Below, in pieces: positions 1-38,332 of a stretch of 39,014 nt of DNA (position 1 is the first letter of the stretch; the number at the start of each line of letters is the position of its first letter). The translations under genes were made by a program, and so were the position numbers. The notes under the pieces are model-generated. The model was not told where the DNA came from, made no database searches, and saw only the letters and a list, made by a program, of their open reading frames with translations. This DNA comes from a virus (lineage: Duplodnaviria; Heunggongvirae; Uroviricota; Caudoviricetes): the IMG/VR virus record IMGVR_UViG_2671180460_000015; one strand, given 5' to 3'.

Positions 1-90
1 TTATCTTCTGGTATTTAGCTATCCCTCATAAGTTAATTGCCGCTGAGATATCCTAAGCTCTAGCCTCTGAAAATACATTTATATTTCGAA

Positions 91-122
91 GCCCGCGATA
101 TTTTAAGCGGGCTTTTATTTTA
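91..122. terminator. GC hairpin (GCCCGC-N10-GCGGGC) followed by a T-run on the + strand, just outside the tfa stop
   Basis: Inverted repeat gcccgc/gcgggc at 91-112 with ttttatttt on the + strand; the minus-strand T-tract is weak, so direction is ambiguous. Confidence 0.35.
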
Positions 123-701
123 AACTTCTGGTATTACAGGCCACTCAATATCAGGTGCAGTTGATGTATCAACACGGTTCAGCAACACCCGATACTTCTT
201 CCAGGCTTCCAGCAACGAGTTTTCTTCCTCCGTTGCGATCTCCAGATCTACAGCATCCTGAAGTGGCGCAATATGCTCACTGGCTACCTGCATCAGGCTG
301 TTTTTTGTTTCTTCCGCCTCCCGGATCCGGAACAGTTTTTCTGCTTCTGCATCTTTCACCCAGGCTGTGCCGTTCCACTTCTGAAACTCCCCTTCCGGCG
401 ATAACCAGGTAACATTTTCCGGTAACGGACCGAGTTCAGAAATAAATAACGCGTCCTCTGACGCTACGTCATAAACCGTTTTACCCCGATGATCTTCAAC
501 GAGATGCCACGATGCCTCATCACTGTTGAAAACAGCCACGAAGCCTGCCGGAATATCTGGCGGTGCAATATCGGTACTGTTTGCTGGCAGACCTGTATGA
601 GGCGGAATATATGCATCACCTTCACCAATAAATTCATTAGTTCCGGCCAGCAGATTATAAATTTTTATGGTCCGTGGTTGTTCACTCATTCTGAATGCCA
701 T
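120..701 (-). CDS. tfa: tail fiber assembly protein Tfa
   Basis: 193-aa ORF; translation [24 protein letters not shown]... is near-identical to lambda Tfa as I recall it. Confidence 0.95.
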
Positions 702-3700
702 TATGCAAGCCTCACAATATAGTTAAATGCGATGTTTTTGACGGTGTTTTCCGCGTTACCAGCAGCGTTAACGGTGATGGTGTGTCCATGTGAACCAATC
801 GCAACGGAGTGCGTGTGTGCACCAATACCTACAGTATGTGCGTGTGCACCTGCGCTTGCAGCAGTACCCGATACAGAGTGCGTATGAGCGCCTGCAGAAG
901 AAGTGTTAACACTGTATTTAGAATAATCAGGTGATCCACTTCCCGGAGCACCACTGGAACCACCTGAAACAAATGTCATCGAATGGGTATGTGCACCGGC
1001 TGAAGCAGCCGTACCGCTAACACTATGGGTATGCGCACCAGTGTTATTCGTGGATTTAGTGCCGTAATCAAACGACGATGTGGTTTTCGTCCCCAAATCA
1101 GTACTGGATGCGCTGGCGCTGTGGGTATGCGATTTTATGCCGTCCTGTTCCTGAGACAATACGGCACGACCACTGGCGGGCTTGCCCTTAATCGTCCAGC
1201 CACGCATATCAGGGATCACGCCTGACGGATAAGCGGCTGCAAGTTTCGGGTAGGCAGATTTGTCAAAAGTCTGCCCCTGCATCAGGGCATAACCAGACGG
1301 AACGGTATCTGATGGCCACGGGATTGGTGCGCCGACTGGGTAGCTTTCTGGTGGAAGCTTTTTCGAGGTATAAACTTCTGCCCAGTCTTCCTCAAAACCA
1401 TAACCGTCTCTTGAAGAACGGTAGAACAGACCACCATTTCTGTAATGCGCCTTCATCTGCAAGGTCCGGCAACTTCCGACTCCGGTATAGAAGTTAACCA
1501 GAATATAGCTGTCGCCAGAGCGGGTGACATTGTAAGCGCCTGATTCGGCATTCCAGGGAACGCCACCATCCGCATCGGCATATGTATCCGTTGCCCTTCT
1601 GGCAAAAGCAGCCACATGCGCGGCGGTTAAAGTAATATCTTTGGAACCATCAAACTCAACACCAGAAACCCGTCTTGGCGTTTGCAGCTTTGTTGCTGTT
1701 AATGCATTACCGTTCAAACTTGCGGACAGTTTGGTTCCAATAACCAGTTCGCCGGTTGCGTTATCAATAGCAAACGGTCTTAATGTATTCCAGCCACCAT
1801 AAACATCACCTTGATTGGTAAGCAGCAGGTAAGTTTTAGCGCCATCATTACGCCATAATGCCCCATACTCCCCACCTATCATTCGAATCTGATTACCACC
1901 ACGCGCTACAATTTCGTCTGTGGCAAAAAGTTTTTTGCACGACAAGTTATCGTTAACGATTAACGAATGAGACTCATAAAAACCACGCCCACTCTTAAAA
2001 TCAAGGATAACGTCCGCCGCGATACATTCAGTCGCCGGATTTGTTGCCCCAAACTTATAGGTCGTATCATTAACAACGAGATCAGCACCAGGTGCGGATA
2101 TTGACAGGCCATCTTCGATAAACGCAAAAACAGGGAAAGCAGCGCCATCAACATAGAACACAGAGCGCAAATCATCGCCCTTATTACTCATCATTATTGA
2201 GTGGATGGCTCGTTCATTGTTTTGATATTGCCAGAACATTCCATAAGCATAACGCCCCCTGTCAGTCCAGCCACCAGGCATAACAAATCCGTTAAACTCG
2301 CAGTTATTCATCGGATCGCCTGCGGTTCGCGTTGCCGTGGTGATAATGACCCTTGATGCCAGTTCGCTTACTGAGCCAGCAGAACGCATAACAACAACAG
2401 GGTAATATTTTCCAGATGTTGCACCTGCAGGAGCGTTAACCCGCACATAACGCATACCACGCTTATCAGCAAAGTCTGTTTTACTGACCGCGTTAATGTT
2501 GTTCAGGAAGCGTCCCTTATCGGGTATATCAGCGCCGTTCTGGTCTTTCTGCAGACGTTTCTCTGCATTGTCATAGGCTGCTTTTACTGCCTTTGGCGTT
2601 GCCGCCAGCGTTTCAGACGTGCTGTTGGTCGCGCTGCTGAGCTGTACTATCCCCTTTTTCGTCGTACTTGCATCCTCAAGCGCCACGGCGGATGCAATAT
2701 CCTCTGCCCGTTTAGCTGCTGTCTCGGCGCGCGTTGCCGCGGATTCCGCCGTACTTTTGCTCTGAGCTGCCGCCGTCGCACTGCCAGCTGCCTCTGTCGC
2801 CTTCGTGGATGCCGTCGTGGCGCTGCTCTTCGCTGCTGACGCCTGTCTGGTCGCCTCATCTTTTGAAGCAGACGCAGATGATGCCGATGACGCCGCCGAA
2901 CTGGCGGACGATGCGGCAGCCGTTTTTGAGGATTCTGCGCTGGTTTCCGACGCTTTCGCGTTCGTTTCGGATGTCTTCGCTGCGGAAGCAGACCTCGCTG
3001 CTGCGCTGGCCTGTTCAGTGGCTTCGCCAGCCTTCGTTGTGGCTGTTGAAGCAGACGATGCGGCACTTTCTGCCGATTTTCCGGCGGCGGTGGCACTGGC
3101 TGAGGCCTGCCCGGCACTTGTTGACGCGGCACTGGCAGACGACGCAGCCGCTGTTTTTGAGCCTGCCGCAGCCGAGGCGCTCTGTCCCGCTGCCGTTTCA
3201 GAAGACCCGGCGTTTGTCTCAGACGTCTTTGCCGCCTTCGCGGAATTGCCTGCCGCCGTTGCCGAGGAAGCGGCACTACTGGCGCTTGATGATGCGTTCG
3301 TTTCTGATGATTTCGCTGCCTCTTTTGAGGCCGCCGCATCCCGGGCTGAGGTGGCTGCTTCTGACGCCTTCGTGGTCGCGGCGGATGCAGAAGTGGCTGC
3401 TGATTGTTGTGACGCTGCCGCATTCGTTTCTGACGTTTTCGCCGCACCGGCACTGGTAGCTGCCGCGCTTTTTGAGGACTCTGCAGCAGCAGCACTTTTC
3501 GATGCTTCACTGGCCTTTGTTGATGCCGTTCCTGCGCTGGAAGATGCTGACTGAGCCGACGACGCGGCCTGCCCGGCTGATGTGCTGGCTGCACGTGCTG
3601 AGCCTGCAGCATCAGTCGCATGGGTTGCCGCCTCACGGGCTGATGTGCTGGCATCGCTGGCTGACTTCTTCGCGGCTGCCGTGTTCTGTGCCACCGCGGA

Positions 3701-4051
3701 CGCGTTACGCGCCACCTCTTCCACCATCAGTTCAAAACGGCGCAGTGCCTCAGGACGGGCATCATCCTCCGTCATGGCACCGAGAAAATCATTCAGCGTA
3801 CCGGGTCGGGAATCTTCATACACGGTGATGGTCCCGGCATGTGACGGAGGGAATCCCTCCACCAACAGAATAACGCTGTACTGCCCGTACTCAACGTCCA
3901 TGCTGTAACGCCCGGCTTCATCCGGATTTTCTGAGGCCAGCGTGTTCACCACCACCGTGGTGCTGTTACGTTTTGCTTTCAGCTGGATTGTGCAGTTCTG
4001 TACCGGTTTTCCTGTGCCGTCTTTCAGTACACCTGAAATCTTTACTGCCAT
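701..4051 (-). CDS. stf: side tail fiber protein Stf, intact and long (about 1116 aa)
   Basis: N-terminus [26 protein letters not shown]... and C-terminus ...[31 protein letters not shown] match lambda Stf. Ala/Ser/Thr-rich central low-complexity region and His-rich HTHS repeats. Start trimmed from ORF-track 4057 to the lambda-equivalent Met. Confidence 0.9.
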
Positions 4052-4062
4052 ATTCACCCCAC

Positions 4063-4088
4063 AAAAAAGCCCGCCTGAACCGGCGGGC
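4063..4088 (-). terminator. rho-independent terminator downstream of lom
   Basis: Minus-strand reading gcccgccggttcaggcgggc followed by tttttt. Confidence 0.55.
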
Positions 4089-4115
4089 TGTCATAACACT
4101 GTGTTACCTGGCTAA

Positions 4116-4715
4116 TCAGAATTTATAACCGACACCCACGATGAAACCGTCAGTGCGCCAGTCACCACTGCCGGAGCCTTCATAAGCAATATCAATGACC
4201 ACGGATTCGGTCGGGTTAAACTGCACGCCAGCCCCCCACGCCAGAGACGTGTTGCTGTGGCGACCGTCATCACTTCCGGTCAGCACATCGTGCTTTTTCC
4301 CCTTGTTGTCAGTTACGCGAAGATAATCCCCGGAGAAAGTCGACACACGGCTGTAAGCTACACCCGCCATCGCATACGCGCTGAACCATTCATTCACGCG
4401 CACAGACGGCCCCGCCATTACGCTGAACCAGCGGTTACGAACGGAATCTTCATGCCAGCGGGTATCGCTGTAACGGGTCAGCTGGCGATTCTTGTCTCCT
4501 GCATAGCTGAATGACGTCACCAGCCCCAGTGTGTCCGTAAACTCATAACGGTATTTCACGTTAATCCCGTTCAGATCATCACTGCCGGGGACGTTCGTCG
4601 AGGCATGAAGATACCCCGCGCTCAGCGTGGACTGATGTTCAGACGCCCATGCAGGCGCACCGGATACGGCCAGACAAATGGCTGCGGAAAAAATGGCGGC
4701 ATAAAGTTTACGCAT
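4116..4715 (-). CDS. lom: outer-membrane protein Lom (Ail/Lom family)
   Basis: 199-aa ORF with signal peptide and C-terminus ...DIAYEGSGSGDWRTDGFIVGVGYKF identical in pattern to lambda Lom; sits between J and stf as in lambda. Confidence 0.9.
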   Translation of the reverse strand: MRKLYAAIFSAAICLAVSGAPAWASEHQSTLSAGYLHASTNVPGSDDLNGINVKYRYEFTDTLGLVTSFSYAGDKNRQLTRYSDTRWHEDSVRNRWFSVMAGPSVRVNEWFSAYAMAGVAYSRVSTFSGDYLRVTDNKGKKHDVLTGSDDGRHSNTSLAWGAGVQFNPTESVVIDIAYEGSGSGDWRTDGFIVGVGYKF

Positions 4716-4736
4716 AATTACCTCTCGCTTTTCTGC

Positions 4737-4762
4737 AATAAAAAAGGCGCCATTTCTGGCGC
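4737..4762 (-). terminator. rho-independent terminator downstream of J
   Basis: Minus-strand hairpin ggcgcc-agaaat-ggcgcc followed by ttttttatt. Confidence 0.55.
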
Positions 4763-4781
4763 CCGTTCTGGGTTATAAAAT

Positions 4782-8183
<3,402 letters not shown>

Positions 8184-8240
8184 TCACGCTCCAGAAACGA
8201 CAAAACCGCCCTGAGGCGGTTTCACATAAAACGTTTTTCA

Positions 8241-8912
8241 TCAACGACCAATCACCACAACCTGACCACCGTCCCCCTCGTCTGCCGTGCTGATCTCCTG
8301 AGAAGCCACCCGCGACCCCACGCGCATTTCACCGTACAGAACAGGCAGAACATTGCCCTGGGCAACCATGTTATCCAGTGAGGAGAAATAGGTGTTCTGC
8401 TTACCGTTATCCGTTGTCTGTGTACGGGGAGTTCTGACTTTCGGTGCCAGCATCTGCGCCACACCACCAAGTACCATACTGGCACCGAGAGAAAACAGGA
8501 TACCGGTCATACCACCGGCCCCAATGGCTGCCCCCCATGCTGCAAGGGTGGCTCCGGCAGTAAAGAATGATCCGGCAATGGCGGCAGCCCCCAGAACAAT
8601 CTGGAATACGCCCCCTGACTTGGCCCCGGCGACTCTGGGAACAATATGAATCACAGCGCCGTCAGGCAGAACCTCATGTAACTGCGCCGTCAATCCGGAC
8701 GTGCTGACGTCCCGCCCGGAAATCCGTACCTGATACCAGCCGTCGCTCAGTTTCTGACGAAACGCCGGGAGCTGTGTGGCCAGCGCCCGGATGGCTTCAG
8801 CCCCCGTTTTCACACGAAGGTCGATGCGGCGGCCAAATCGTTGTAAATCCCCGTAAAGGCAGATGCGCGCCATGCCCGGTGACGCCAGAGGGAGTGTGTG
8901 CGTCGCTGCCAT
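8241..8912 (-). CDS. I: tail assembly protein I
   Basis: 223 aa, MAATHTLPLASPGMARICLYGDLQRFGRR...; lambda I length and sequence; overlaps K by 103 nt as in lambda. Confidence 0.9.
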   Translation of the reverse strand: MAATHTLPLASPGMARICLYGDLQRFGRRIDLRVKTGAEAIRALATQLPAFRQKLSDGWYQVRISGRDVSTSGLTAQLHEVLPDGAVIHIVPRVAGAKSGGVFQIVLGAAAIAGSFFTAGATLAAWGAAIGAGGMTGILFSLGASMVLGGVAQMLAPKVRTPRTQTTDNGKQNTYFSSLDNMVAQGNVLPVLYGEMRVGSRVASQEISTADEGDGGQVVVIGR

Positions 8913-9553
8913 TTGTCGGTATACCTCTCTCGTTTGCTCAGTTGTTCAGGAATATGGTGCAGCAGCTCGCCGTCACCACAGTAAATGGCGGCATGATTCG
9001 GCACCGATGAACCAAAACAGCACAGCAGCACATCGCCCGGTTGTGCTGATGACAACGGCACCTGATACAGCCCTGTGGCCTCCAGATTATCCAGATAGAG
9101 ATTCTGACCGTGACGCCACCAGTCATCCCCGCGATGAAAATCCGGCATCTCAATCCCCGCCAGATGATAAGCATCCCGGAACAGCGTGTAACAGTCCGTC
9201 ACCCCGTGCTCAAAGCGCCGCCCGGTGAGATGCGGCACACAGCGGAACTTGTGAATCGCCCCCCGGCAGACCAGCAACCACGGCAAATCACTCTGCACCT
9301 GCAGCCGCCGGTCAGACTCACTCAGCCAGGGCAGACCACCGGGGTGGCTGTGGACCAGCGCCACAATCTCACCCTGCATCTCTGCCTGCAGCCAGTCCTC
9401 CGGAGCCATCCGGAAATAATCCTCCGGCTCACCGGAGATATTCACGCAGGGAAAATATCTTTCCCCCTCCGGCGTGCTTACCACGAAGCCGCACGACTCC
9501 GCTGGCGCACATCGCCGGGCGTGCGCCAGAATCGCTGATTCTGTCTTTGTCAT
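8810..9553 (-). CDS. K: tail assembly protein K (JAMM/MPN plus NlpC/P60-like); long form
   Basis: ORF MTKTESAILAHARRC... contains the JAMM motif VHSHPGG...SESD. The lambda annotation I recall is 199 aa, which would start at the internal Met (about 9409); the longer ORF is open and starts right after L. Confidence 0.85.
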   Translation of the reverse strand: MTKTESAILAHARRCAPAESCGFVVSTPEGERYFPCVNISGEPEDYFRMAPEDWLQAEMQGEIVALVHSHPGGLPWLSESDRRLQVQSDLPWLLVCRGAIHKFRCVPHLTGRRFEHGVTDCYTLFRDAYHLAGIEMPDFHRGDDWWRHGQNLYLDNLEATGLYQVPLSSAQPGDVLLCCFGSSVPNHAAIYCGDGELLHHIPEQLSKRERYTDKWQRRTHSLWRHRAWRASAFTGIYNDLAAASTFV

Positions 9554-24761: not shown

Positions 24762-25223
24762 CTATCTGCACTGCTCATTAATATACTTCTGGGTTCCTTC
24801 CAGTTGTTTTTGCATAGTGATCAGCCTCTCTCTGAGGGTGAAATAATCCCGTTCAGCGGTGTCTGCCAGTCGGGGGGAGGCTGCATTATCCACGCCGGAG
24901 GCGGTGGTGGCTTCACGCACTGACTGACAGACTGCTTTGATGTGCAACCGACGACGACCAGCGGCAACATCATCACGCAGAGCATCATTTTCAGCTTTCG
25001 CATCAGCTAACTCCTTCGTGTATTTTGCATCGAGCGCAGCAACATCACGCTGACGCATCTGCATGTCAGTAATTGCCGCGTTCGCCAGCTTCAGTTCTCT
25101 GGCATTTTTGTCGCGCTGGGCTTTGTAGGTAATGGCGTTATCACGGTAATGATTAACAGCCCATGACAGGCAGACGATGATGCAGATAACCAGAGCGGAG
25201 ATAATCGCGGTTACTCTGTTCAT
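24762..25223 (-). CDS. Rz: spanin inner-membrane subunit Rz
   Basis: [29 protein letters not shown]...; lambda/21 Rz; start trimmed from 25235. Confidence 0.9.
24821..25003 (-). CDS. Rz1: spanin outer-membrane lipoprotein Rz1, embedded in Rz in another frame
   Basis: 60 aa, [46 protein letters not shown]; lipobox and Pro-rich, nested inside Rz. Confidence 0.9.
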
Positions 25224-25717
25224 TGCTGACCCCACAAACAGATTTCACGCTCAATCTCACGACGAGTCATGAGACCTTTCCATTGCTTACCGCCAGCATA
25301 TGTCCAGCGACGTAGCTGATCACATGCGCCTTTGATATCGCCCTGGTTTATTTTGCGAAGAAGCGTCGATGTTCTGAAATTGCCAGCACCCACGTTGTAA
25401 ACGAATGAGTAAAGAGCGCCGCGCATTGTTTCCGGTATATCGACTTTGATGTACGGGTTAATTTGTCTGGCGACCGTGGCAAGGTCTTTATTCAGGAGGG
25501 CTTTGCATTCTGCTTTGGTATACGTTTTACCGAGCATGATGTCTTTTCCTGTATGCCCGTGACATACAGTCCATACACCAACAATATCTTTGTATGGTAT
25601 GTAGCTGACACCTTCCAGACCATCGTTACCACTTGGGCCAGTGATTAACACTGATGCTATAGCAATTGCTCCGCCACCAATAGCAGCAGCAACGGCTTTT
25701 CGTAATGATGGAGGCAT
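25220..25717 (-). CDS. R: SAR endolysin R (phage-21-type lysozyme with N-terminal signal-anchor-release segment)
   Basis: 165 aa, [42 protein letters not shown]...; Gly/Ala-rich SAR domain then lysozyme. Confidence 0.9.
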
Positions 25718-25932
25718 TATTCACCTCTCGCAGCCTTGCGCTTATCTTCTTTAATCTTGAAATAAAGGTTTGTCAGGTACGTCAGCAGGCCAAATACCAG
25801 GCTACCCAGCACACCTATTGCTGCCCACTGTGAGGGCGTGACTTTATCGAGCAGCTGTAAAAACCAGTAACCGGCACTACCTGCTGAGGTGCCATAGGCG
25901 ACACCCGTTGTTAACTTATCCATGGATTTCAT
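25717..25932 (-). CDS. S: class II holin / pinholin S (phage-21 S21 type), with probable dual starts at 25932 and 25923
   Basis: [71 protein letters not shown]; 71-aa antiholin and 68-aa holin starts. The ORF track extends upstream to 25977. Confidence 0.9.
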
Positions 25933-26521: not shown

Positions 26522-27604
26522 ATGAAAAAATTAACAGTGGCAATTTCTGCTGTAGCTGCATCAGTACTGATGGCGATGTCTGCTCAGGCAGCTGAAATTT
26601 ATAATAAAGACAGTAACAAGCTGGATCTATATGGGAAAGTTAATGCCAAGCACTACTTCTCCTCTAATGATGCAGATGATGGTGATACTACTTATGCCCG
26701 TCTTGGCTTCAAAGGTGAAACCCAAATCAACGATCAACTGACTGGTTTCGGTCAGTGGGAATATGAATTCAAAGGCAACCGCGCTGAATCTCAAGGCTCC
26801 TCCAAAGACAAAACCCGTCTTGCATTTGCAGGCCTGAAATTCGGGGACTACGGCTCAATCGATTACGGCCGTAACTACGGTGTAGCATACGACATCGGTG
26901 CGTGGACTGACGTTCTGCCAGAATTCGGTGGCGATACCTGGACCCAAACAGATGTGTTCATGACTGGTCGCACCACTGGTGTTGCAACTTATCGTAACAA
27001 CGACTTCTTTGGTCTGGTTGATGGTCTGAACTTTGCTGCTCAGTATCAGGGTAAAAATGACCGCACTGACGTAACTGAAGCTAATGGTGATGGTTTCGGT
27101 TTCTCCACTACTTATGAGTATGAAGGATTCGGTGTAGGTGCAACCTATGCTAAATCTGACCGCACTAATAATCAGGTTATCTACGGTAACAACAGCCTGA
27201 ATGCATCTGGTCAAAATGCTGAAGTATGGGCAGCTGGTCTGAAATATGATGCGAACAACATCTATCTGGCTACCACCTATTCTGAAACCCAGAACATGAC
27301 TGTTTTTGGTAATAACCATATTGCCAACAAAGCACAAAACTTCGAAGTAGTTGCACAATATCAGTTCGACTTCGGTCTGCGTCCGTCCGTTGCTTACCTG
27401 CAATCTAAAGGAAAAGACTTGGGTGCGTGGGGTGATCAGGACCTGGTTGAATATATTGATGTAGGTGCAACCTATTACTTCAACAAAAATATGTCCACTT
27501 TTGTTGATTACAAAATCAACCTGATTGATAAGAGCGATTTCACGAAAGCATCTGGCGTTGCTACCGATGATATCGTTGCTGTAGGTATGGTTTACCAGTT
27601 CTAA
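26522..27604 (+). CDS. nmpC: outer-membrane general porin, OmpC/OmpF/NmpC (Lc) family, prophage-encoded
   Basis: 360 aa with signal peptide [30 protein letters not shown]... and C-terminal ...VGMVYQF; same position and opposite-strand orientation as DLP12 nmpC between Q and S. Confidence 0.9.
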
Positions 27605-27740
27605 TTTGATTACTAAAAGATATGTTGTGGGAGGCTTTGCCTCCCCAACATATAAGTGGCTCCCTCAAGCCACTTCCTTTAGAAGCACAACCTTGCTTCT
27701 AACTATATAAACCTTCTGTTATATATTACCCTTTATTTTT

Positions 27741-27765
27741 GGGGGCGTTTCAACGCCCCATTTTT
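27741..27765 (+). terminator. rho-independent terminator of the porin gene
   Basis: GGGGCGTT-TCAAC-GCCCC hairpin followed by ATTTTT on the + strand. Confidence 0.65.
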
Positions 27766-27792
27766 AATAATTTTTAGTAAACAATTGGCATA

Positions 27793-28191
27793 TTAATTGG
27801 AGTTATTAACAACGATATCCATCTCTAACCGGATATCTAATGCCATTAACATCCCTTCAATTATGCCCTCAGCCTTCTGTAACCTTTTCCCGATATAACC
27901 ATCAGAGCAGCAATGCTTACCTGCCAGTGACATGAATGTCATACCGACTACATAATAATCTACTAATAAATCGTGCAAATCGCTGTTGTTCTTTTTCAGA
28001 CGGGCCATGCACCCGCAAATGATCATCGCGTCATCGTCACAACATTGCGGGCGAGATTTTACTTTTGAAGTAATTAATCCCTTAAAACCGGCGGCAATGG
28101 ACGACCAGGTCACATCTTCATGATTATTAGCCGCCCACGCTCCCCAACGCTCAAGAACCATCTGAATATCACGCATCAACTTACTCCACAA
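27793..28191 (-). CDS. quuD: late-gene antiterminator Q (QuuD / phage-21-82 type)
   Basis: 132-aa [27 protein letters not shown]... with Cys-rich zinc-binding region; position upstream of the lysis genes. Confidence 0.85.
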
Positions 28192-28261
28192 AAATCAGAC
28201 CAGAACGCCAATTACAAGCAAAAATCAACGAAACAGTATTAGTTGATTGTTATCTCTGACT

Positions 28262-28402
28262 TCATACTCCTGCTCCTGTCAGGGTTTTGGCGTAATTCTT
28301 CAGTATTCGGTAATCGGTCAAAACAGAACCGGGGAAACGATATAAGCGCAGACGCCCCCAGCGGTGGCGAAGACGTTCTGCCATATAAAACTCAAACATC
28401 AT
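28262..28402 (-). CDS. ylcG: small protein YlcG
   Basis: Hand translation of the minus strand gives [46 protein letters not shown] (46 aa); its start overlaps the rusA stop (ATGA). Absent from the ORF track because it is under 60 aa. Confidence 0.65.
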
Positions 28403-28761
28403 TCATTCCCCATTTCGGTGATGGTCAGTTCCAGCCTCCCACCTTTGGTAACAGGCATCTTCACAACGCGGTAATCAACGACCTGAGCATCATCCAGCCA
28501 GAAACCTGCTTTAGTGAGTGCGTCAAAAGCGGCTTTTTGCAGATTATCCAGGTCACGGCGACGGCGATCCGGCATGTGGCACTCAATGCGGATTTTCACA
28601 GGCATAGCCAGGCCGATATCCAGCATTGCGTTTTTAATGATTCGGGCGACGTTATCGCGGTATGCCTGCCCCTCTGCGCTGACGTGGGTGCGCCCGCGAT
28701 TATGGCGGTAATAGCGATTATTGCTCGGAGGCCAGGGTAATGTGATGCTGTAGGTATTCAC
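28399..28761 (-). CDS. rusA: Holliday-junction resolvase RusA
   Basis: 120 aa, [46 protein letters not shown]...; matches E. coli RusA. Confidence 0.95.
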
Positions 28762-29048
28762 GCCTTAATAACCCCCTCTTTCAGCCAGATAACCTGTGTT
28801 CTCGCCATACCTTCCAGCGCGCATTCTTTTGCATATGCAGCATCGACAAAATGTGTGCGGCGGTCGATTTCGTCGTGGCAGGCAGAACATGCAATGGTGG
28901 CAATCAGGTCTGGCGGTTTGGTACCGGTGCCGCACAATCCAGTCAGCCGGATATGTGCCAGTACAGACGTTTCAGGGTTACCATTACATACGCCAGGGAT
29001 TCTTACCTGGCATTCCCGACTACGCGCTGCTTTTCTCAAATCAGCCAT
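28758..29048 (-). CDS. ybcO: YbcO (DUF1364 putative nuclease, Cys-rich)
   Basis: [64 protein letters not shown]...; start trimmed from 29087. Confidence 0.85.
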
Positions 29049-29211
29049 GATTCCTCCTTGCTGCCAGTCGCAACCATTTTTTATCAACCAGGCTGGCGGT
29101 ATATCCGAGCAGTGTTGGTATTTCGGAAGGTTTCAGCTCCGGTTTACGCTTACGACGATTTGGTACTCTGTAGATGTGTCCGTTCATGACACGAATAAGC
29201 GGTGTAGCCAT
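29041..29211 (-). CDS. ninE: NinE
   Basis: Hand translation gives [56 protein letters not shown] (56 aa); start shares a base with the ybcN stop and the stop overlaps the ybcO start. Under 60 aa, so not in the ORF track. Confidence 0.7.
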   Translation of the reverse strand: MATPLIRVMNGHIYRVPNRRKRKPELKPSEIPTLLGYTASLVDKKWLRLAARRNHG

Positions 29212-29666
29212 TACGCCTCCTGCTTGTCACGGAGCTGCTGGAACTCGCAGCTCTGCGGAATAGTCAGATGGCAGCCAATATTCACCGCCCAGGCTTCAAC
29301 CTTACACAGGAAGACATACATCTCTCCGGTATCAAGATCGGAGGTATGGCGTAACGACTGGATAGTGGTGATATCACCGGTTACGACATCAACCAGGTCT
29401 TTGGTTTCATAACCGAGATATGTGTGTTTGAGAGCATCTTTTACCCAAGCTGGAGTGGCGAACGTTTTACCCCTGCTGATGAGGTATTCACTGATTTCGC
29501 TGTACCACATGTGGCTGAGTGCATTCTGGGAAAGACTGCGTTTCTCACGCCACGGTTTAAGCATCATGCGAAAGCATTTGCCCTCCTCCAGATAAGGCTG
29601 GATCTGCCGACCGATAGCGGTGAAGTTACCGCGATGTAATTTTATGCCGTCTTGTGGGAGGTTCAC
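29211..29666 (-). CDS. ybcN: YbcN (DNA base-flipping protein of the nin region)
   Basis: 151 aa, [62 protein letters not shown]...; matches DLP12 YbcN as recalled. Confidence 0.9.
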
Positions 29667-29860
29667 GCTTCACCTCCGCAGAGGCCAAACGCTGGATGCA
29701 AAAAATCGCAGGTGCATTTCTGCATCTGTGAATGGAGAAGATAGGTTGGTTTGTATGTGCGCATAAACGTCCCCGTTTAGCGCAGAAGTCACCGGAGTTG
29801 TTCAGGCTCCAATGGCATGATTATGGCTGGTTGATTATTGGAAATCAAATGTGCTGAAAA

Positions 29861-30370
29861 TTAGTCTGCCAAGTCTTCCTCAGTCGCAACTGGGTAATTC
29901 CAAATATCAAAAAAAGCTATAGCCTCCTGCCATTTGCTCCATAAGTTATCAAGTACTTGTGTAGGTTCCGTACTTTTAAAAACAGAATCAGCCGCATCAC
30001 CGTTATGAACTTCCTCGTACAGTTCCATTATTAGCAGATTAACAAAGTACTGTTTCAACATTAATGCCTGATTACCTTCTTTCTGCTGGCTATCCTGCTT
30101 GATGATCTCCATCGCCCGTACTAGGCACCTGATGATATCCGCTGCATCATTAACGCTCCATTCAGATCCGCGCTTATCTTTAGCTGATGAATTGGCTCTC
30201 TCAGCGCAAGCCTTTAAAGACTCATAAAGGTAAACTCTATTTTGTAGCTGCAGCGCTTTTTTTGACGTGTACCAACTTGCAAGCGCCGACCCCGCTGCGG
30301 CTAATGTGCCAAACGCAGAAATACCTGCTGCTATTGCACTTAAGTCGGCACTGTCAAAGTTCCACATCAT
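29861..30370 (-). CDS. hypothetical 169-aa protein with one N-terminal hydrophobic helix; accessory gene of unknown function
   Basis: ORF in an AT-rich stretch; N-terminal DLSAIAAGISAFGTLAAAGSALASWY is a likely transmembrane segment; no lambda or DLP12 counterpart recognised. Confidence 0.6.
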   Translation of the reverse strand: MMWNFDSADLSAIAAGISAFGTLAAAGSALASWYTSKKALQLQNRVYLYESLKACAERANSSAKDKRGSEWSVNDAADIIRCLVRAMEIIKQDSQQKEGNQALMLKQYFVNLLIMELYEEVHNGDAADSVFKSTEPTQVLDNLWSKWQEAIAFFDIWNYPVATEEDLAD

Positions 30371-30688
30371 CGTTACACCTTATATAAATACCCCTCAGTA
30401 ATATCCAATAAGGTATGTGCACAATCAATATAATTTTATCCGTATCGGCACATAGCGATTTGAACGCTACTGGTAATGGTATATTTTAGATTATATCGTC
30501 CAGTTTACAGCACCCGTATTTTATGAAATGGACTCGCATATTACCCAAAAAATGCCAGCACTTCCGTCATCGTAGAATGCTGGCAGTATTTCTAACTAGT
30601 GACTTTATTGGAACAGATTCTGACGGAAATATGGTAACACTCGACTCCACTTATCATCCAGCCACGGCTGGAATTTTACATGTGCCGT

Positions 30689-30928
30689 TTATCTGGCGAG
30701 GATTGCTCGCGCTCTGTTGAGTATCTGGGGATATTCATGCTCGATAGAAGTAAAGCGGCCGGCTTCGCGGTGCTCCGCAACCTGAAGTAGTGGAGTAACG
30801 TTCTGGCAGGCAGTTAACATCACATCACCTGCTCGCCATAACCAAGCACGTGCACAAAGTTTGTTATCAGTGAATTGTTTTGTGATTGGGTATTGTTGAA
30901 CTGCTAGAACGAGAACGCCAGCATCCAT
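30689..30928 (-). CDS. possible small ORF (79 aa) or gene remnant
   Basis: Open frame with locally higher GC than its AT-rich surroundings; no recognisable family and no convincing RBS identified. Confidence 0.25.
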   Translation of the reverse strand: MDAGVLVLAVQQYPITKQFTDNKLCARAWLWRAGDVMLTACQNVTPLLQVAEHREAGRFTSIEHEYPQILNRARAILAR

Positions 30929-31039
30929 TGGCAGTCCCTATAGTAAAACCATAGCTCAGGACGCTTCGTTCAGGATAGATAATTTTATTGTACTTACCTA
31001 ACTTTCTTACTATAGCACGGTTGAAAAAGTGATTATTAC

Positions 31040-32566
31040 TCAAAAATAAACCTCACCATCAACCATATATTTGAGAGTACTTATCGCCTGCTGGGCGGAT
31101 ATTGTTTTCATTAAAGGATAGTGTTTAAAAACAATGCCATTCATAAAATAGATATCACAGGTTTTATTATCTGTATTGATTATGATTTTTTCGAATGTTT
31201 TATAGGCAAGTGTACGACATAGCTCTCGCCCATTTTTACTGGTTAAGTCAATAGCATGAAAATCACCAAGTGAACTCACCGCTTTACTCTTCAAAGTTTT
31301 TAATGATACAGAAGCCCTTCGTAATTCCTTATCTAATACTCTGATTTTTTCTGCTATAGCGGTAACTTCAGGCGCAACAGATAATGCAGCAATTAAATTA
31401 TTAATTTTCATCTGGAGCTCAATAATTTTCAACTCTAAAGTTTCATTAGCATCTTTCTTGTTTTCAACTGGTTGGATTTTACTACAATTAAAAAGCAACT
31501 CATTAATGATATTATAATCAACCAAATCTCTCTTTATTGATGGCCTGTCACATCGATGCAGTCTTCTCATCGGACAAACATAATAGCCATGCAAACTTCC
31601 AGATACCGCATGAACAATCATGGTATTACCACAAGCCTCGCACTTCATAACTGTTCGAAGTAGATTTATCAACATAGGATTTTTGCTACTATTGCTAATA
31701 CCAAAAGGTGCCAACCGAATTTCCTGCACAGCGTAAAACAAATCATCTGATATGACTCTGGGATAATAGCCAGCGATTTCACTTATTCCTTTACCTCTTG
31801 CACGATATGAAGGTACGCATATACCTATCAGAGCTTTATTCGCTAATAATTTTTCAATTACAGAAGGTCCCCATGCACTTTCTTTTCCTGAGAAATTCTT
31901 TACAGCATGATCATTTAAATACTTGGCTATTGCATTCAATGAGCGCCTTTCCATCCTGAGTTTAAAAATTAGCTCAATAGTTTTCACCCTGTCGGGGTCT
32001 GGAACAAAAGCCGTTCTTTTGTCATCCAATGAGAGCCATCTCGGACAAGACGCCGTCATAATCGTGCCTGACTCCAGTGCATCCTGCCGTTTTTTCTTCC
32101 ATGATAATTTAACCCGACTTGACTTTATCTCGCTTTCTTCATTTGCCCTTTGTGCTATAAGTATGGCTTTTATTAATGAATATGGCTCATTCAATGAGTC
32201 AATATTATAGACTGTATTATCGCAAAGAGTTATAACATCAATACCGTGATTCAAAATCAATTTCAGACGCTCAATCGCTTCACCGACTTTTTCTCTTGAA
32301 AGTCTGTCCAGACTTTCAACTAACAATGTAGTCCCTGGCAATATATAACCATGTTCTATAGCATCTAAAAATTCCGAAAAAGCTCCTGATTGTGCATGCT
32401 TTCCATTGAATGCGCTTAACCCCAAATCTTCATACGTTACGGTATCAAGGTAATAATCACTATTTACCTTTAGCCATTCAGTAATAAGCCTTCTCTGGCG
32501 GTTTAATGAATCACCAGACATCTGACCTGGTGATGAAAATCGCATATATGCTATGGCTTTTTTCAT
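31040..32566 (-). CDS. ybcK: large serine recombinase (resolvase/invertase-type N-terminal catalytic domain), YbcK-like
   Basis: 508 aa; N-terminus MKKAIAYMRFSSPGQMSGDSLNRQRRL... has the serine-recombinase catalytic motif (YxRxS...R); same length and context (next to emrE) as DLP12 ybcK. Confidence 0.85.
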   Translation of the reverse strand: MKKAIAYMRFSSPGQMSGDSLNRQRRLITEWLKVNSDYYLDTVTYEDLGLSAFNGKHAQSGAFSEFLDAIEHGYILPGTTLLVESLDRLSREKVGEAIERLKLILNHGIDVITLCDNTVYNIDSLNEPYSLIKAILIAQRANEESEIKSSRVKLSWKKKRQDALESGTIMTASCPRWLSLDDKRTAFVPDPDRVKTIELIFKLRMERRSLNAIAKYLNDHAVKNFSGKESAWGPSVIEKLLANKALIGICVPSYRARGKGISEIAGYYPRVISDDLFYAVQEIRLAPFGISNSSKNPMLINLLRTVMKCEACGNTMIVHAVSGSLHGYYVCPMRRLHRCDRPSIKRDLVDYNIINELLFNCSKIQPVENKKDANETLELKIIELQMKINNLIAALSVAPEVTAIAEKIRVLDKELRRASVSLKTLKSKAVSSLGDFHAIDLTSKNGRELCRTLAYKTFEKIIINTDNKTCDIYFMNGIVFKHYPLMKTISAQQAISTLKYMVDGEVYF

Positions 32567-32821
32567 GGTGACACCTGCTAAAGTATGCTTTTATAAACCT
32601 TAGTGGTGAGATATGATTTTTGTTTAATTTTTATTTAAAAAGACAATTAAGGTCACATTATCTTGAATATACAACAATAATCGTATTGCAATTTTCTTAC
32701 ACCATAATCTTGAAAGCACAAAAGAATGAATAAAAACTAAAGACATTAACAAAAAGCATAAAACGAGGCCCATATAAATATACGAACCTCCATATTTTAG
32801 TCGTTTAAAAACAAATTATTT

Positions 32822-33154
32822 TTAATGTGGTGTGCTTCGTGACAATAAATTAATAACCAACACACCGGCACAAATCAACATCATGCCTATAATGGCTGGC
32901 AGGTCCAACCGTTGGCCGAAAAATCCCCATGATAGTAAGCTAATCAGGACAATACCGACTCCTGACCAGATAGCATAAGCAATCCCTGTAGGAATATAAG
33001 CCAGCGTCTGAGCTAATAACCAGAATGATGCACAATAACAAATAATTGTACCAACAGATGGCCATAACCGTGTAAAACCTTCTGAAAACTTCATTAAGGT
33101 TGTACCAATGACCTCTGCAAGTATTGCACCACCAAGATAAATATAAGGATTCAT
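32822..33154 (-). CDS. emrE: small multidrug resistance efflux transporter EmrE (SMR family)
   Basis: MNPYIYLGGAILAEVIGTTLMKFSEGFTRLWPSVGTIICYCASFWLLAQTLAYIPTGIAYAIWSGVGIVLISLLSWGFFGQRLDLPAIIGMMLICAGVL.INLLSRSTPH, 110 aa; start trimmed from 33208. Confidence 0.95.
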   Translation of the reverse strand: MNPYIYLGGAILAEVIGTTLMKFSEGFTRLWPSVGTIICYCASFWLLAQTLAYIPTGIAYAIWSGVGIVLISLLSWGFFGQRLDLPAIIGMMLICAGVLVINLLSRSTPH

Positions 33155-33221
33155 AGCATATTCTTTCCTGTTCAAACTGGAGAGAATTGTACTACAGTTT
33201 GAACTCAACTCACCTGTTTCA

Positions 33222-33524
33222 TCATTGTGTACCCATTGATGTTCTTTTATATACCCTCAATACCCGTTTCATCGCGGCACTCTGGCGACACTCCTTAAAA
33301 ATCAAATTCGTGCTCACCTTTCCTTCCCATTCTTCTCTGGTAGCGAACCGATAATACACCGTTCGCCAGACCTTACCATCAACGACCAGGATTCCTGCCC
33401 GCGCCATTTTAGCCGCAGCCTGATTTATGCTGGTTACCGTTGCGCCTGTTACCGCGGCAACGTCCTGCGCACAGAATTTCTTATGAGTCCCCAGGTAATG
33501 AATAATTGCCTCTTTGCCCGTCAT
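33222..33524 (-). CDS. ren: Ren (Rex-exclusion escape protein)
   Basis: MTGKEAIIHYLGTHKKFCAQDVAAVTGATVTSINQAAAKMARAGILVVDGKVWRTVYYRFATREEWEG...; matches lambda Ren. Confidence 0.9.
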   Translation of the reverse strand: MTGKEAIIHYLGTHKKFCAQDVAAVTGATVTSINQAAAKMARAGILVVDGKVWRTVYYRFATREEWEGKVSTNLIFKECRQSAAMKRVLRVYKRTSMGTQ

Positions 33525-36915: not shown

Positions 36916-37977
36916 ATGGATACTTTAAAATATGAGAAATTCTCTGATTTTGATCACAATGACCCATTTTTTGACTCTTTAAAAAAAGATTATAAAGAGT
37001 TTCCTCTTTGGTTAGAAAAAAAAGCCAGAGAAGGAGAATCAGCTTATGTGCTCTATGATGACAAGCATAAAATCGAAGGTTTTATGTATCTAAAAGAAAA
37101 TGATGATGCAAATGACATTAATCCAGCGCTCCCACCAGGACGTCATCTAAAGATAGGAACATTCAAATTTGAATCTAAAGGCACCCTTCGCGGACAACGA
37201 TTTCTAAAAAAAGCGTTTGACCATGCATTTTCATCAAAATCTGATGATATTTATGTTACTGTTTTCGACAAACACGTCCATCTAATAAAACTTTTCCAAA
37301 CGTACGGATTTTACATTCATGGTGAAAAAGAAACACATAACGGGAAAGAGTTTGTATATGCGAGGTCTTTGCATGAGCCTTATGGTGATATTTTATTAGA
37401 TTACCCTCGAATAATGACATCAAGGGCCAACAAATATTTACTGGCGATTTATCCCGAATATCACACTAGACTATTCCCTGATTCAAAACTTGTAAATGAA
37501 TCACCAGATATTGTCAAAGATATATCCCATGCTAACAGCATTCATAAAATTTACATATGTGGAATGCGTTCTGTGATGGGAATGAAAAGAGGAGATATCA
37601 TTGTCATCTATAGAACCGGAGACAAAAAAGGGCCAGCTCGCTATCGTTCTGTAGCCAGTACATTATGTGTAGTTGAGAGCGTAAAAAATATTTCTGAATT
37701 TTTAAGCGAAGATAGTTTTGTAGACTATTGTATTCGTTTTAGCGTATTTTCTGAAGATGAACTCAGAAAAATCTATAAAGAACGTCGATACCCTTTCATT
37801 ATAAGATTCACATACAATCTGTCTTTGCCAAAGAGACCCAATCGTGCTATTTTAATAGATCATGTGGGGCTAAATGGTTCGCGTGCATTCCGATGGAGTC
37901 ACTTTAAACTCACAAATGAGCAGTTCTTAAAGATCATCGAGTTAGGCAAGATAAATGAAAGTTTTATTATCCATTAA
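36916..37977 (+). CDS. hypothetical 353-aa protein, first gene of the immunity-region accessory operon (rexA position)
   Basis: ORF 36904-37977; GGAG at 36906-36909 sits 6 nt before the second ATG (36916). Strongly AT-rich. No lambda homolog recognised; tentative GNAT-like N-terminal half and PUA-like C-terminal half from motif inspection only. Confidence 0.75.
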   Translation: MDTLKYEKFSDFDHNDPFFDSLKKDYKEFPLWLEKKAREGESAYVLYDDKHKIEGFMYLKENDDANDINPALPPGRHLKIGTFKFESKGTLRGQRFLKKAFDHAFSSKSDDIYVTVFDKHVHLIKLFQTYGFYIHGEKETHNGKEFVYARSLHEPYGDILLDYPRIMTSRANKYLLAIYPEYHTRLFPDSKLVNESPDIVKDISHANSIHKIYICGMRSVMGMKRGDIIVIYRTGDKKGPARYRSVASTLCVVESVKNISEFLSEDSFVDYCIRFSVFSEDELRKIYKERRYPFIIRFTYNLSLPKRPNRAILIDHVGLNGSRAFRWSHFKLTNEQFLKIIELGKINESFIIH

Positions 37978-38332
37978 GCCTGAGTTTGCAGAAAAAATAT
38001 TGAACGGAACAAAGCGGTTCGAGTTTCGTAAAGGTATATTCAAAAATCCGCAAATTAGCACCGTTGTTATTTATGCCACGATGCCATTAGGTAAAGTTGT
38101 TGGTCAATTCCGTATTGAATCAATACTAAGTGACGAACCGGAATCTCTTTGGAAAAAGACGGAAAAACACGCAGGTATTTCTAAGCAATTTTATGACTCA
38201 TATTATTCAGGTAGAGAAAAGGCCTACGCAATAAAAATTGGTGAAGTGGAAAGATATAAAGAACCAATTCCTATCTCTGCTCTAGGTAGTAATATTAAGC
38301 CACCACAATCATATCTTTACCTACCTGCGTAA
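37955..38332 (+). CDS. ASCH/PUA-like domain protein (125 aa), second gene of the immunity-region accessory operon (rexB position)
   Basis: MKVLLSIKPEFAEKILNGTKRFEFRKG... carries the ASCH G-x-K-x-x-E-x-R signature; start overlaps the upstream gene by 23 nt; AT-rich. Confidence 0.75.
   Translation: MKVLLSIKPEFAEKILNGTKRFEFRKGIFKNPQISTVVIYATMPLGKVVGQFRIESILSDEPESLWKKTEKHAGISKQFYDSYYSGREKAYAIKIGEVERYKEPIPISALGSNIKPPQSYLYLPA

Follow-up and report, generated by a model that had tools for sequence, protein, structure and literature searches.

A small accessory gene with a putative membrane anchor and a predicted promoter of its own in the ybcL-ybcM slot of a lambda-like prophage

The window analysed here, the 39,014 nucleotides of virus record IMGVR_UViG_2671180460_000015, carries at 29861-30370 on the minus strand an ATG-initiated open reading frame of 169 codons (ORF169), placed where the DLP12 prophage of Escherichia coli K-12 has ybcL and ybcM. 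The list of open reading frames confirmed the 169-residue product, and the coordinates first given for it were retained. A second ATG lies 3 nt inside the frame and is the start in phage PhiR5_1, whose codon 1 is ATA. When ORF169 was compared with three diverged relatives of 57-66% protein identity (L005, L006, and L008; loci of relatives are cited by such numbers), synonymous sites (dS) were saturated while nonsynonymous divergence (dN) was only 0.25-0.44, and ORF169 is therefore a real protein-coding gene under purifying selection. The same ratio was uninformative among E. coli alleles of ORF169, which showed only 3-9 differences. E. coli O128:H27 strain 90-9281 has an annotated protein of identical sequence (WP_000990013.1); over the 1.5 kb compared, the locus there does not differ from the window at any base, and the annotation coordinates (L068) coincide with those of the window. 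The locus was also found in E. coli 55989 and O104:H4.

BLAST comparison with DLP12 of K-12 MG1655 gave 96-98% identity on both sides of the gene, at 31031-33435 (ybcK, ylcJ, emrE) and at 27566-29836 (ylcH, ybcN and on to quuD), which bears out the proposal in the initial annotation that the ybcL-ybcM slot has been replaced. K-12 ybcL (a periplasmic protein resembling PEBP/Raf kinase inhibitor) and ybcM (an AraC-type regulator) occupy the same position as ORF169 and are not homologous to it: the inserts of 1858 bp and 1194 bp do not align, and ORF169 has neither a PEBP nor an AraC domain. Most of the replacing block (29837-30915) is common to lambdoid phages of the type that carries PD-lambda-1. 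The remaining 115 bp, between the ybcK stop codon and a Rha remnant (30916-31030), match neither K-12 DLP12 nor those phages. Of 5426 complete E. coli genomes, 177 had the ORF169 block and 3206 had ybcL-ybcM, and about 3000 matched the flanks. Two alleles of the block were seen in E. coli, with identities of at least 99% and about 97% over its length.

The slot had been described as an AT-rich island holding a single reading frame. Its composition is modestly AT-rich (43.9% G+C in ORF169 and 39.0% in the upstream spacer, against 51.2% for the whole window), but the 194 bp downstream of ORF169, included in that island, have 46.9% G+C, contain ylcH, and are homologous to K-12 from 29836 downward; they are backbone and not island. 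Nor is ORF169 alone there, since the block also holds a Rha/P22AR_C pseudogene and a hairpin followed by a T-run. ORF169 does differ in base composition from its neighbours and is polymorphic for presence or absence among related phages, as a moron would be, and its slot, compared across related prophages as had been proposed, was a variable accessory position of the lambdoid nin region. The features of the locus are collected in Table 1.

Table 1. Features at and around ORF169, in window coordinates.
Feature	Position	Strand	Details
Block standing in for K-12 ybcL-ybcM	29837..31030 (1194 bp)	.	K-12 has 1858 bp there, between ybcK and ylcH-ybcN
ORF169 coding sequence	29861..30370	-	RefSeq WP_000990013.1 'hypothetical protein'; PHROG 1779
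Acidic C-terminal tail, (T)-E/D-E-D-L-x-D	29861..29881	-	Codons 164-169 and stop; from alignments
Putative membrane anchor	30275..30337	-	Codons 12-32, uncharged, Ala/Gly/Ser-rich; Trp/Leu at residue 10 before, Lys/Arg after
Shine-Dalgarno sequence AAGGTG	30376..30381	-	5 nt 5' of the first ATG of ORF169
Imperfect inverted repeat around the -10	30388..30416	-	ATACCTT (30416-30410) and GGGGTAT (30394-30388)
Predicted sigma70-like promoter	30400..30428	-	-35 TTGATT (30428-30423), 17-nt spacer, -10 GATATT (30405-30400)
Terminator-like hairpin	30547..30585	-	TGCCAGCA...TGCTGGCA, then TTTTTT; -20.3 kcal/mol, z -2.15
Truncated Rha/antirepressor-like pseudogene	30605..30928	-	P22AR C-terminal domain, PF10548 (P22AR_C) E 2.4e-12; RefSeq pseudogene
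ylcH-like 33-codon reading frame	29663..29764	-	Overlaps the ybcN start; K-12-shared backbone, outside the cassette

The initial annotation had assigned the protein to no recognisable family. This holds for the curated domain collections: Pfam gave no family at E <= 1, superinfection-exclusion and abortive-infection families (SieB, Imm_superinfect) included, and NCBIfam gave none. It does not hold for PHROG 1779, which matched ORF169 over its full length (E 1.2e-102, 342 bits, residues 1-169 on profile positions 1-169 of 169). That entry, like WP_000990013.1 and WP_000990010.1, represents the same family and carries no function, domain, or structure; the family is thus already catalogued, as a RefSeq hypothetical protein and as PHROG 1779 (function unknown), but uncharacterised. 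Extending the Pfam search to 32 relatives yielded scattered chance matches and no recurring family, a sequence-profile search of the PDB with the same relatives found no solved structure (best E 3.7), and Rfam returned nothing on 29400-31200. Literature searches by accession, phage name, and hotspot found no paper on ORF169.

Homologues were few. Word-indexed searching across 5.8 billion proteins gave 15 clusters, an exhaustive profile search of 1.84 billion proteins gave 35 representatives (50% identity) at E <= 1e-3, and all named sources were Enterobacterales (Escherichia, Scandinavium, Enterobacter, Phytobacter, Dryocola, Pantoea, Erwinia, Pectobacterium, and Kluyvera). Only 2 of 50,697 deposited phage genomes contained the gene, namely PhiR26_1 (recorded on E. 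coli K-12 MG1655) and PhiR5_1 (on E. coli C). ORF169 is an accessory gene of temperate Enterobacterales phages, probably of the moron type, and belongs to a very small orphan family.

The surroundings of the gene varied with the lineage. In lambdoid phages and prophages it was always the last gene of a variable accessory cluster, read in the direction of the early-right operon, and was followed directly by ninB/ybcN or by DUF1367, its positional analogue. The order in PhiR26_1, L010, and L011 was ren, PD-lambda-1 (on the opposite strand), Rha, ORF169, ylcH, ybcN; in these three arrangements the DUF4041 gene is PD-lambda-1 (PADLOC E 2e-198), and DUF4041, the PD-lambda-1 domain, marks an experimentally validated defence protein (PMC9519451). 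A 154-residue homologue of about 35% identity was found directly upstream of phd-doc (L073 5920-6384, E. coli plasmid pS51_2, NZ_CP015997.1) on P1-like phage-plasmids of 93-98 kb in E. coli, E. albertii, and E. marmotae. A longer variant of 288 residues fills the same slot before DUF1367 in Escherichia lambdoid prophages (L069-L071 8001-8867). The same variant also occurs as an orphan in Pectobacterium polaris (L072 8001-8867), beside a tRNA-Gly/Cys/Leu cluster after pgsA and at least 8 kb away from any other phage gene.

Rha is intact (202-249 residues) in PhiR26_1, PhiR5_1, L010, and L011. In the window its N-terminal half is gone and an internal stop interrupts it at 30689-30691; ORF169 stays intact beside this remnant. 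Homology of the window to the PD-lambda-1-type arrangement covers 29000-30915 and resumes at 33258, so that emrE-ylcJ-ybcK has taken the place of PD-lambda-1 and the N-terminal half of Rha. An obligatory two-gene system of Rha and ORF169 was ruled out, as Rha is a pseudogene here and relatives have other genes upstream. A 98-bp ylcH-like sequence (window 29687-29784) recurs upstream of Rha in L010 (6785-6882) and L002 (4653-4741). In those two loci the copies, at about 90% identity, flank the Rha-ORF169 pair on both sides, and the repeat is plausibly a recombination linker at a mosaic boundary that would serve module exchange.

The N-terminal segment of the protein had been predicted to be a transmembrane helix. 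Family conservation speaks for an anchor: none of the 32 aligned relatives had a charged residue at positions 12-32, several reached Kyte-Doolittle values of 2.0-2.5, Trp stood at residue 10 in 20 of 28 sequences, and K or R followed at residues 33-34 and 37-38. The flank on the N-terminal side was net acidic and that on the C-terminal side net basic in nearly all members, so that an N-out/C-in topology is predicted. In the 288-residue variant (P0042/P0060) three strongly hydrophobic segments precede the same anchor segment. Within the segment Ala, Gly, and Ser dominate positions 15, 18, 19, 21, 22, 24-26, 28, 29, and 32, bulky residues take positions 13, 16/17, 20, 23, 27, and 30, and this pattern is typical of tightly packing helices; the helix is probably an oligomerisation interface. 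We consider it fairly probable, from the alignments, that ORF169 is tethered to the membrane by this single N-terminal anchor. A holin identity is not supported: the lysis cassette essD-rrrD-rzpD (24762-25932) is 4 kb off, no holin family in Pfam matched ORF169, and a soluble helical bundle is predicted for most of its length.

The AlphaFold2 model of the protein (14-sequence alignment) had a mean predicted local distance difference test score (pLDDT) of 71 and a predicted template modelling (TM) score of 0.64. It showed one continuous long helix over residues 10-63 and a helical bundle at about 40-155, with means of 71-93 pLDDT over 10-residue blocks. Searching BFVD with the model returned generic helical matches only (best E 0.026, TM 0.37). 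Among Foldseek matches HEPN/HepT toxins appeared at ranks 3, 6, 13, 32, and 35, with E values of 0.9-3.1, TM scores of 0.21-0.34, and probabilities of at most 0.23, none of them significant. HepT of MntA-HepT does resemble ORF169 in size and in being a small up-down helical bundle. The assignment was rejected, as ORF169 has no Rx4-6H motif, its only histidine (H122) is unconserved, and the conserved R58-A-N60 has no His following it. Invariant or nearly invariant polar residues across the 32 relatives were limited to S32, Q43, and N60, and because there are almost none of them the bundle is better read as a module for binding or sensing than as an enzyme. The acidic tail, D/E-E/D-D-L-x-D, was kept in about two thirds of the family, distant members included.

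Upstream of ORF169 a sigma70-like promoter is predicted, with transcription starting at about 30395-30393. In six diverged loci (the window, L005, L006, L008, L054, and L057) the TTG of the -35, the 17-nt spacing, and TGGATATTA were invariant. The -35 read TTGATT, TTGCTT, or TTGCTA and the -10 GATATT, and the genes lying upstream of these loci differed (Rha, DUF551, or unknown). Pairwise identity over the 29-nt promoter core was 52-93%, compared with 35-56% at third codon positions of ORF169. Other relatives had TATAAT (L062, L063, L069, and L074) or TATACT (L072) at the same place, and the copy on P1-like plasmids is preceded by an extended -10, TGATACAAT, of the TGnTACAAT type. The sequence comparison thus lends moderate support to a private promoter for ORF169. 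The terminator-like hairpin lies about 120 nt upstream of the -35, directly after the stop codon that intact Rha uses elsewhere, and was kept in the alignment of PhiR26_1, PhiR5_1, and L010. A LexA box at the conserved upstream motif was rejected by eye, there being no CTG-N10-CAG. In L012 (5025-5549, E. coli JCC-EE 7) an IS1 lies directly upstream of ORF169 and has removed the native promoter region; the gene is annotated there with a 5-codon N-terminal extension created by IS1, and the adjoining ybcN is a pseudogene.

The inverted repeat around the -10, imperfect in the window, is perfect in L005, L054, and L057 as ATACCCT-N15/16-AGGGTAT. The repeat may serve as an operator, or it may form a hairpin that exists only in read-through transcripts. 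A covariation test of the RNA hairpin was uninformative, the arms being mostly identical. In L062, L063, L069, and L074 a hairpin CCCCTC-N8/N9-GAGGGG follows the TATAAT, with its 3' arm forming the ribosome-binding site; it is degenerate in L072.

Two known systems invite comparison. Gp15 of HK97 is a single-pass membrane superinfection-exclusion moron of a siphophage. ORF169 is likewise small and prophage-borne, is predicted to be anchored by its N-terminus, seems to have a private promoter, and occupies a non-essential lambdoid position; unlike gp15, it has a predicted cytoplasmic bundle of 135 residues and lies in the early (nin) region and not in the tail or late region. PD-lambda-1, described as putatively membrane-anchored (PMC9519451), shares with ORF169 the variable region from ren to ninB, and the two are physical neighbours via Rha in the three arrangements named above. 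In contrast to PD-lambda-1, ORF169 lacks a nuclease-like domain and is not matched by any PADLOC family.

We hypothesise that ORF169 is a self-transcribed inner-membrane accessory protein that acts in superinfection exclusion or abortive infection. This is the best available guess, to which we assign a probability of roughly 0.35. Such an anti-phage role is weakly suggested by moron-like wiring, by a slot that bears defence genes, and by retention of the gene where its neighbours have decayed or the phage is gone. ORF169 would be transcribed from its own sigma70 promoter, TTGATT-17-GATATT, and the terminator-like hairpin would insulate this promoter from upstream early transcription, making expression in the lysogen possible. 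One N-terminal helix rich in small residues would tether the product to the inner membrane, N-out/C-in, and present a cytoplasmic helical bundle of about 135 residues ending in the acidic DEDLxD tail. In the lysogen the protein would then interfere at the membrane with infection by other phages, which is the weakest step of the scheme. It might block genome entry, that is, exclude superinfecting phages; or the bundle might bind a phage or host protein and the clustered anchor disturb the membrane, giving abortive infection. The inverted repeats would fit into this scheme as follows. With either promoter type the 5' arm would lie upstream of the private start, which would fall inside the repeat, and only read-through (lytic) transcripts would hold both arms. 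Where the 3' arm is the Shine-Dalgarno sequence, as in the TATAAT-type relatives, lytic transcripts would be translationally silenced. We regard as doubtful the wider proposition that ORF169 founds a family of single-gene, membrane-anchored anti-phage proteins of temperate Enterobacterales phages, with lysogen-specific expression and with the DEDLxD tail as a sensing or docking element.

Several observations weigh against the exclusion or abortive-infection hypothesis, which the initial annotation had also favoured. The promoter, the PD-lambda-1 neighbour, the variant with four segments, and the orphan copy are in its favour, but ORF169 matched no family at E <= 1 in PADLOC-DB v2, a library in which the positive controls PD-Lambda-1 and PDC-M11 were matched, and was not found in the parts of the DefensePredictor supplements that were available. 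Foldseek against the PDB gave a best E of 0.49 and no fold suggesting a mechanism. Nearness to PD-lambda-1 may reflect only a generally variable slot. The promoter agrees with the consensus at 8 of 12 positions, below the 9/12 threshold of the generic scan, and so was not flagged by it, and no convincing terminator was found 3' of ORF169: of the two hairpins there, the one with a T-run (29724-29707, within ylcH) is weak, with 5 pairs, and the strong one lacks a T-run. Moreover, the gene is always oriented like the early operon, and in a sub-lineage of Pantoea and Dryocola it overlaps an upstream gene resembling DNA polymerase III theta by 4 nt and has no promoter of its own; because of this overlap and the missing promoter the homologue is, as read from these loci, an early-operon product at least there. 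These copies, flanked by erf/ssb and xis/int, belong to the early-left side. The theta homologue is phage-borne and belongs to PF06440; the overlapping pair was seen at L064 7756-8519, L065 7762-8516, and L066 7235-7989. L064 is a small integrative element with a retron-like pair of RVT_1 and SLATT_5.

These last points are the core of the main rival explanation, by which ORF169 would be an accessory protein of the early lytic cycle that benefits the phage and not the lysogen, engaged for instance in host takeover, counter-defence, or a membrane process, and expressed mainly by read-through from pR or pL with the promoter motif being secondary. The constant orientation, the location either between the replication genes and ninB or, on the pL side, between erf/ssb and xis/int, the translational coupling to the theta-like gene, neighbours that are typical early accessory genes (Ead/Ea22, DUF551), and the fact that only the weak hairpin inside ylcH follows the gene all agree with it. 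We nevertheless consider it somewhat unlikely, since the promoter-like element is conserved in three other sub-lineages and preceded by a terminator-like hairpin, ORF169 is intact next to a decayed Rha, and the Pectobacterium orphan has no phage left to serve. The orphan, a retained chromosomal copy, would also suit a lysogenic-conversion gene outside defence, that is, a membrane protein that alters host physiology (envelope stress, transport, or colonisation) in the manner of bor/iss, lom, or emrE. The predicted promoter and probable membrane location accord with conversion, and iss/bor, an ompC-like porin, lom, and emrE are present in the same prophage. Most of ORF169 is, however, predicted to be cytoplasmic and not surface-exposed, no transporter or envelope domain was detected, and the gene is restricted to phage accessory slots and rare, as its count among E. 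coli genomes and its 35 clusters show; this makes conversion quite improbable.

The remaining alternative concerns the anchor, which in the window protein is only marginal as a transmembrane helix (Kyte-Doolittle maximum 1.59, summed insertion scale +2.7) and is modelled with low confidence, the first 26 residues of the AlphaFold2 model being below 50 pLDDT; both observations count against the proposed tether. ORF169 might then be a soluble protein, a cytoplasmic helical adaptor or regulator whose Ala-rich N-terminal helix serves oligomerisation in the manner of an Alacoil. The marginal hydrophobicity, the heptad-like stripe of bulky residues amid small ones, and the single continuous helix of the model all speak for such a protein. 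We hold it to be unlikely, in view of the 21 consecutive positions that are uncharged in all 32 diverged sequences and are preceded by an aromatic and followed by basic residues, the many relatives with hydrophobicity well above that of the window protein, and the natural fusion that sets the segment after three clearly hydrophobic ones. The single transmembrane helix first proposed is thus backed by the family and borderline in the window protein itself.

In lambdoid prophages the stretch from ren to ninB serves as a cargo slot and has already yielded the validated defence gene PD-lambda-1, and ORF169 is cheap to test, as it is found in pathogenic lineages (55989, O104:H4) and in the inducible phages PhiR26_1 and PhiR5_1, both of which plate on laboratory strains of E. 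coli. If the exclusion or abortive-infection hypothesis is true, the gene would represent a new single-gene family of that kind without a known fold; if it is false, the family would count as an early-lytic accessory function. Current understanding is not overturned, and the existence of such a gene will not surprise a specialist. The value lies in a well-delimited candidate with mapped regulatory elements.

The element that the window (1-39014) represents is a complete lambda-like prophage with a DLP12-like emrE-ybcK to ybcN module, and not the cryptic remnant of K-12. Its gene content comprises int, xis, exo/bet/gam, kil, a repressor, O, P, ren, Q, lysis, terminase, head, and tail genes, J, and tail fibres; int and xis lie just outside the window, and the integrase is of the type that adjoins ybhC in L012. 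The ompC-like porin gene (26522-27604) is intact, and iss/bor, lom, and emrE are further cargo of this prophage. Directly 3' of the cI-like repressor, at the position of rexAB in lambda, two overlapping genes (36916-37977 and 37955-38332, both on the plus strand) match the PADLOC candidate defence system PDC-M11: its component A is matched at E 3e-133, and its component B, which has an ASCH domain, at E 7e-52. The strong hairpin lacking a T-run downstream of ORF169 (GCGCTAAACG-GGGA-CGTTTATGCGC, at about 29800-29760 on the minus strand) holds the ylcH start codon within its 3' arm. K-12 has the same hairpin, which may control translation of ylcH and ybcN.

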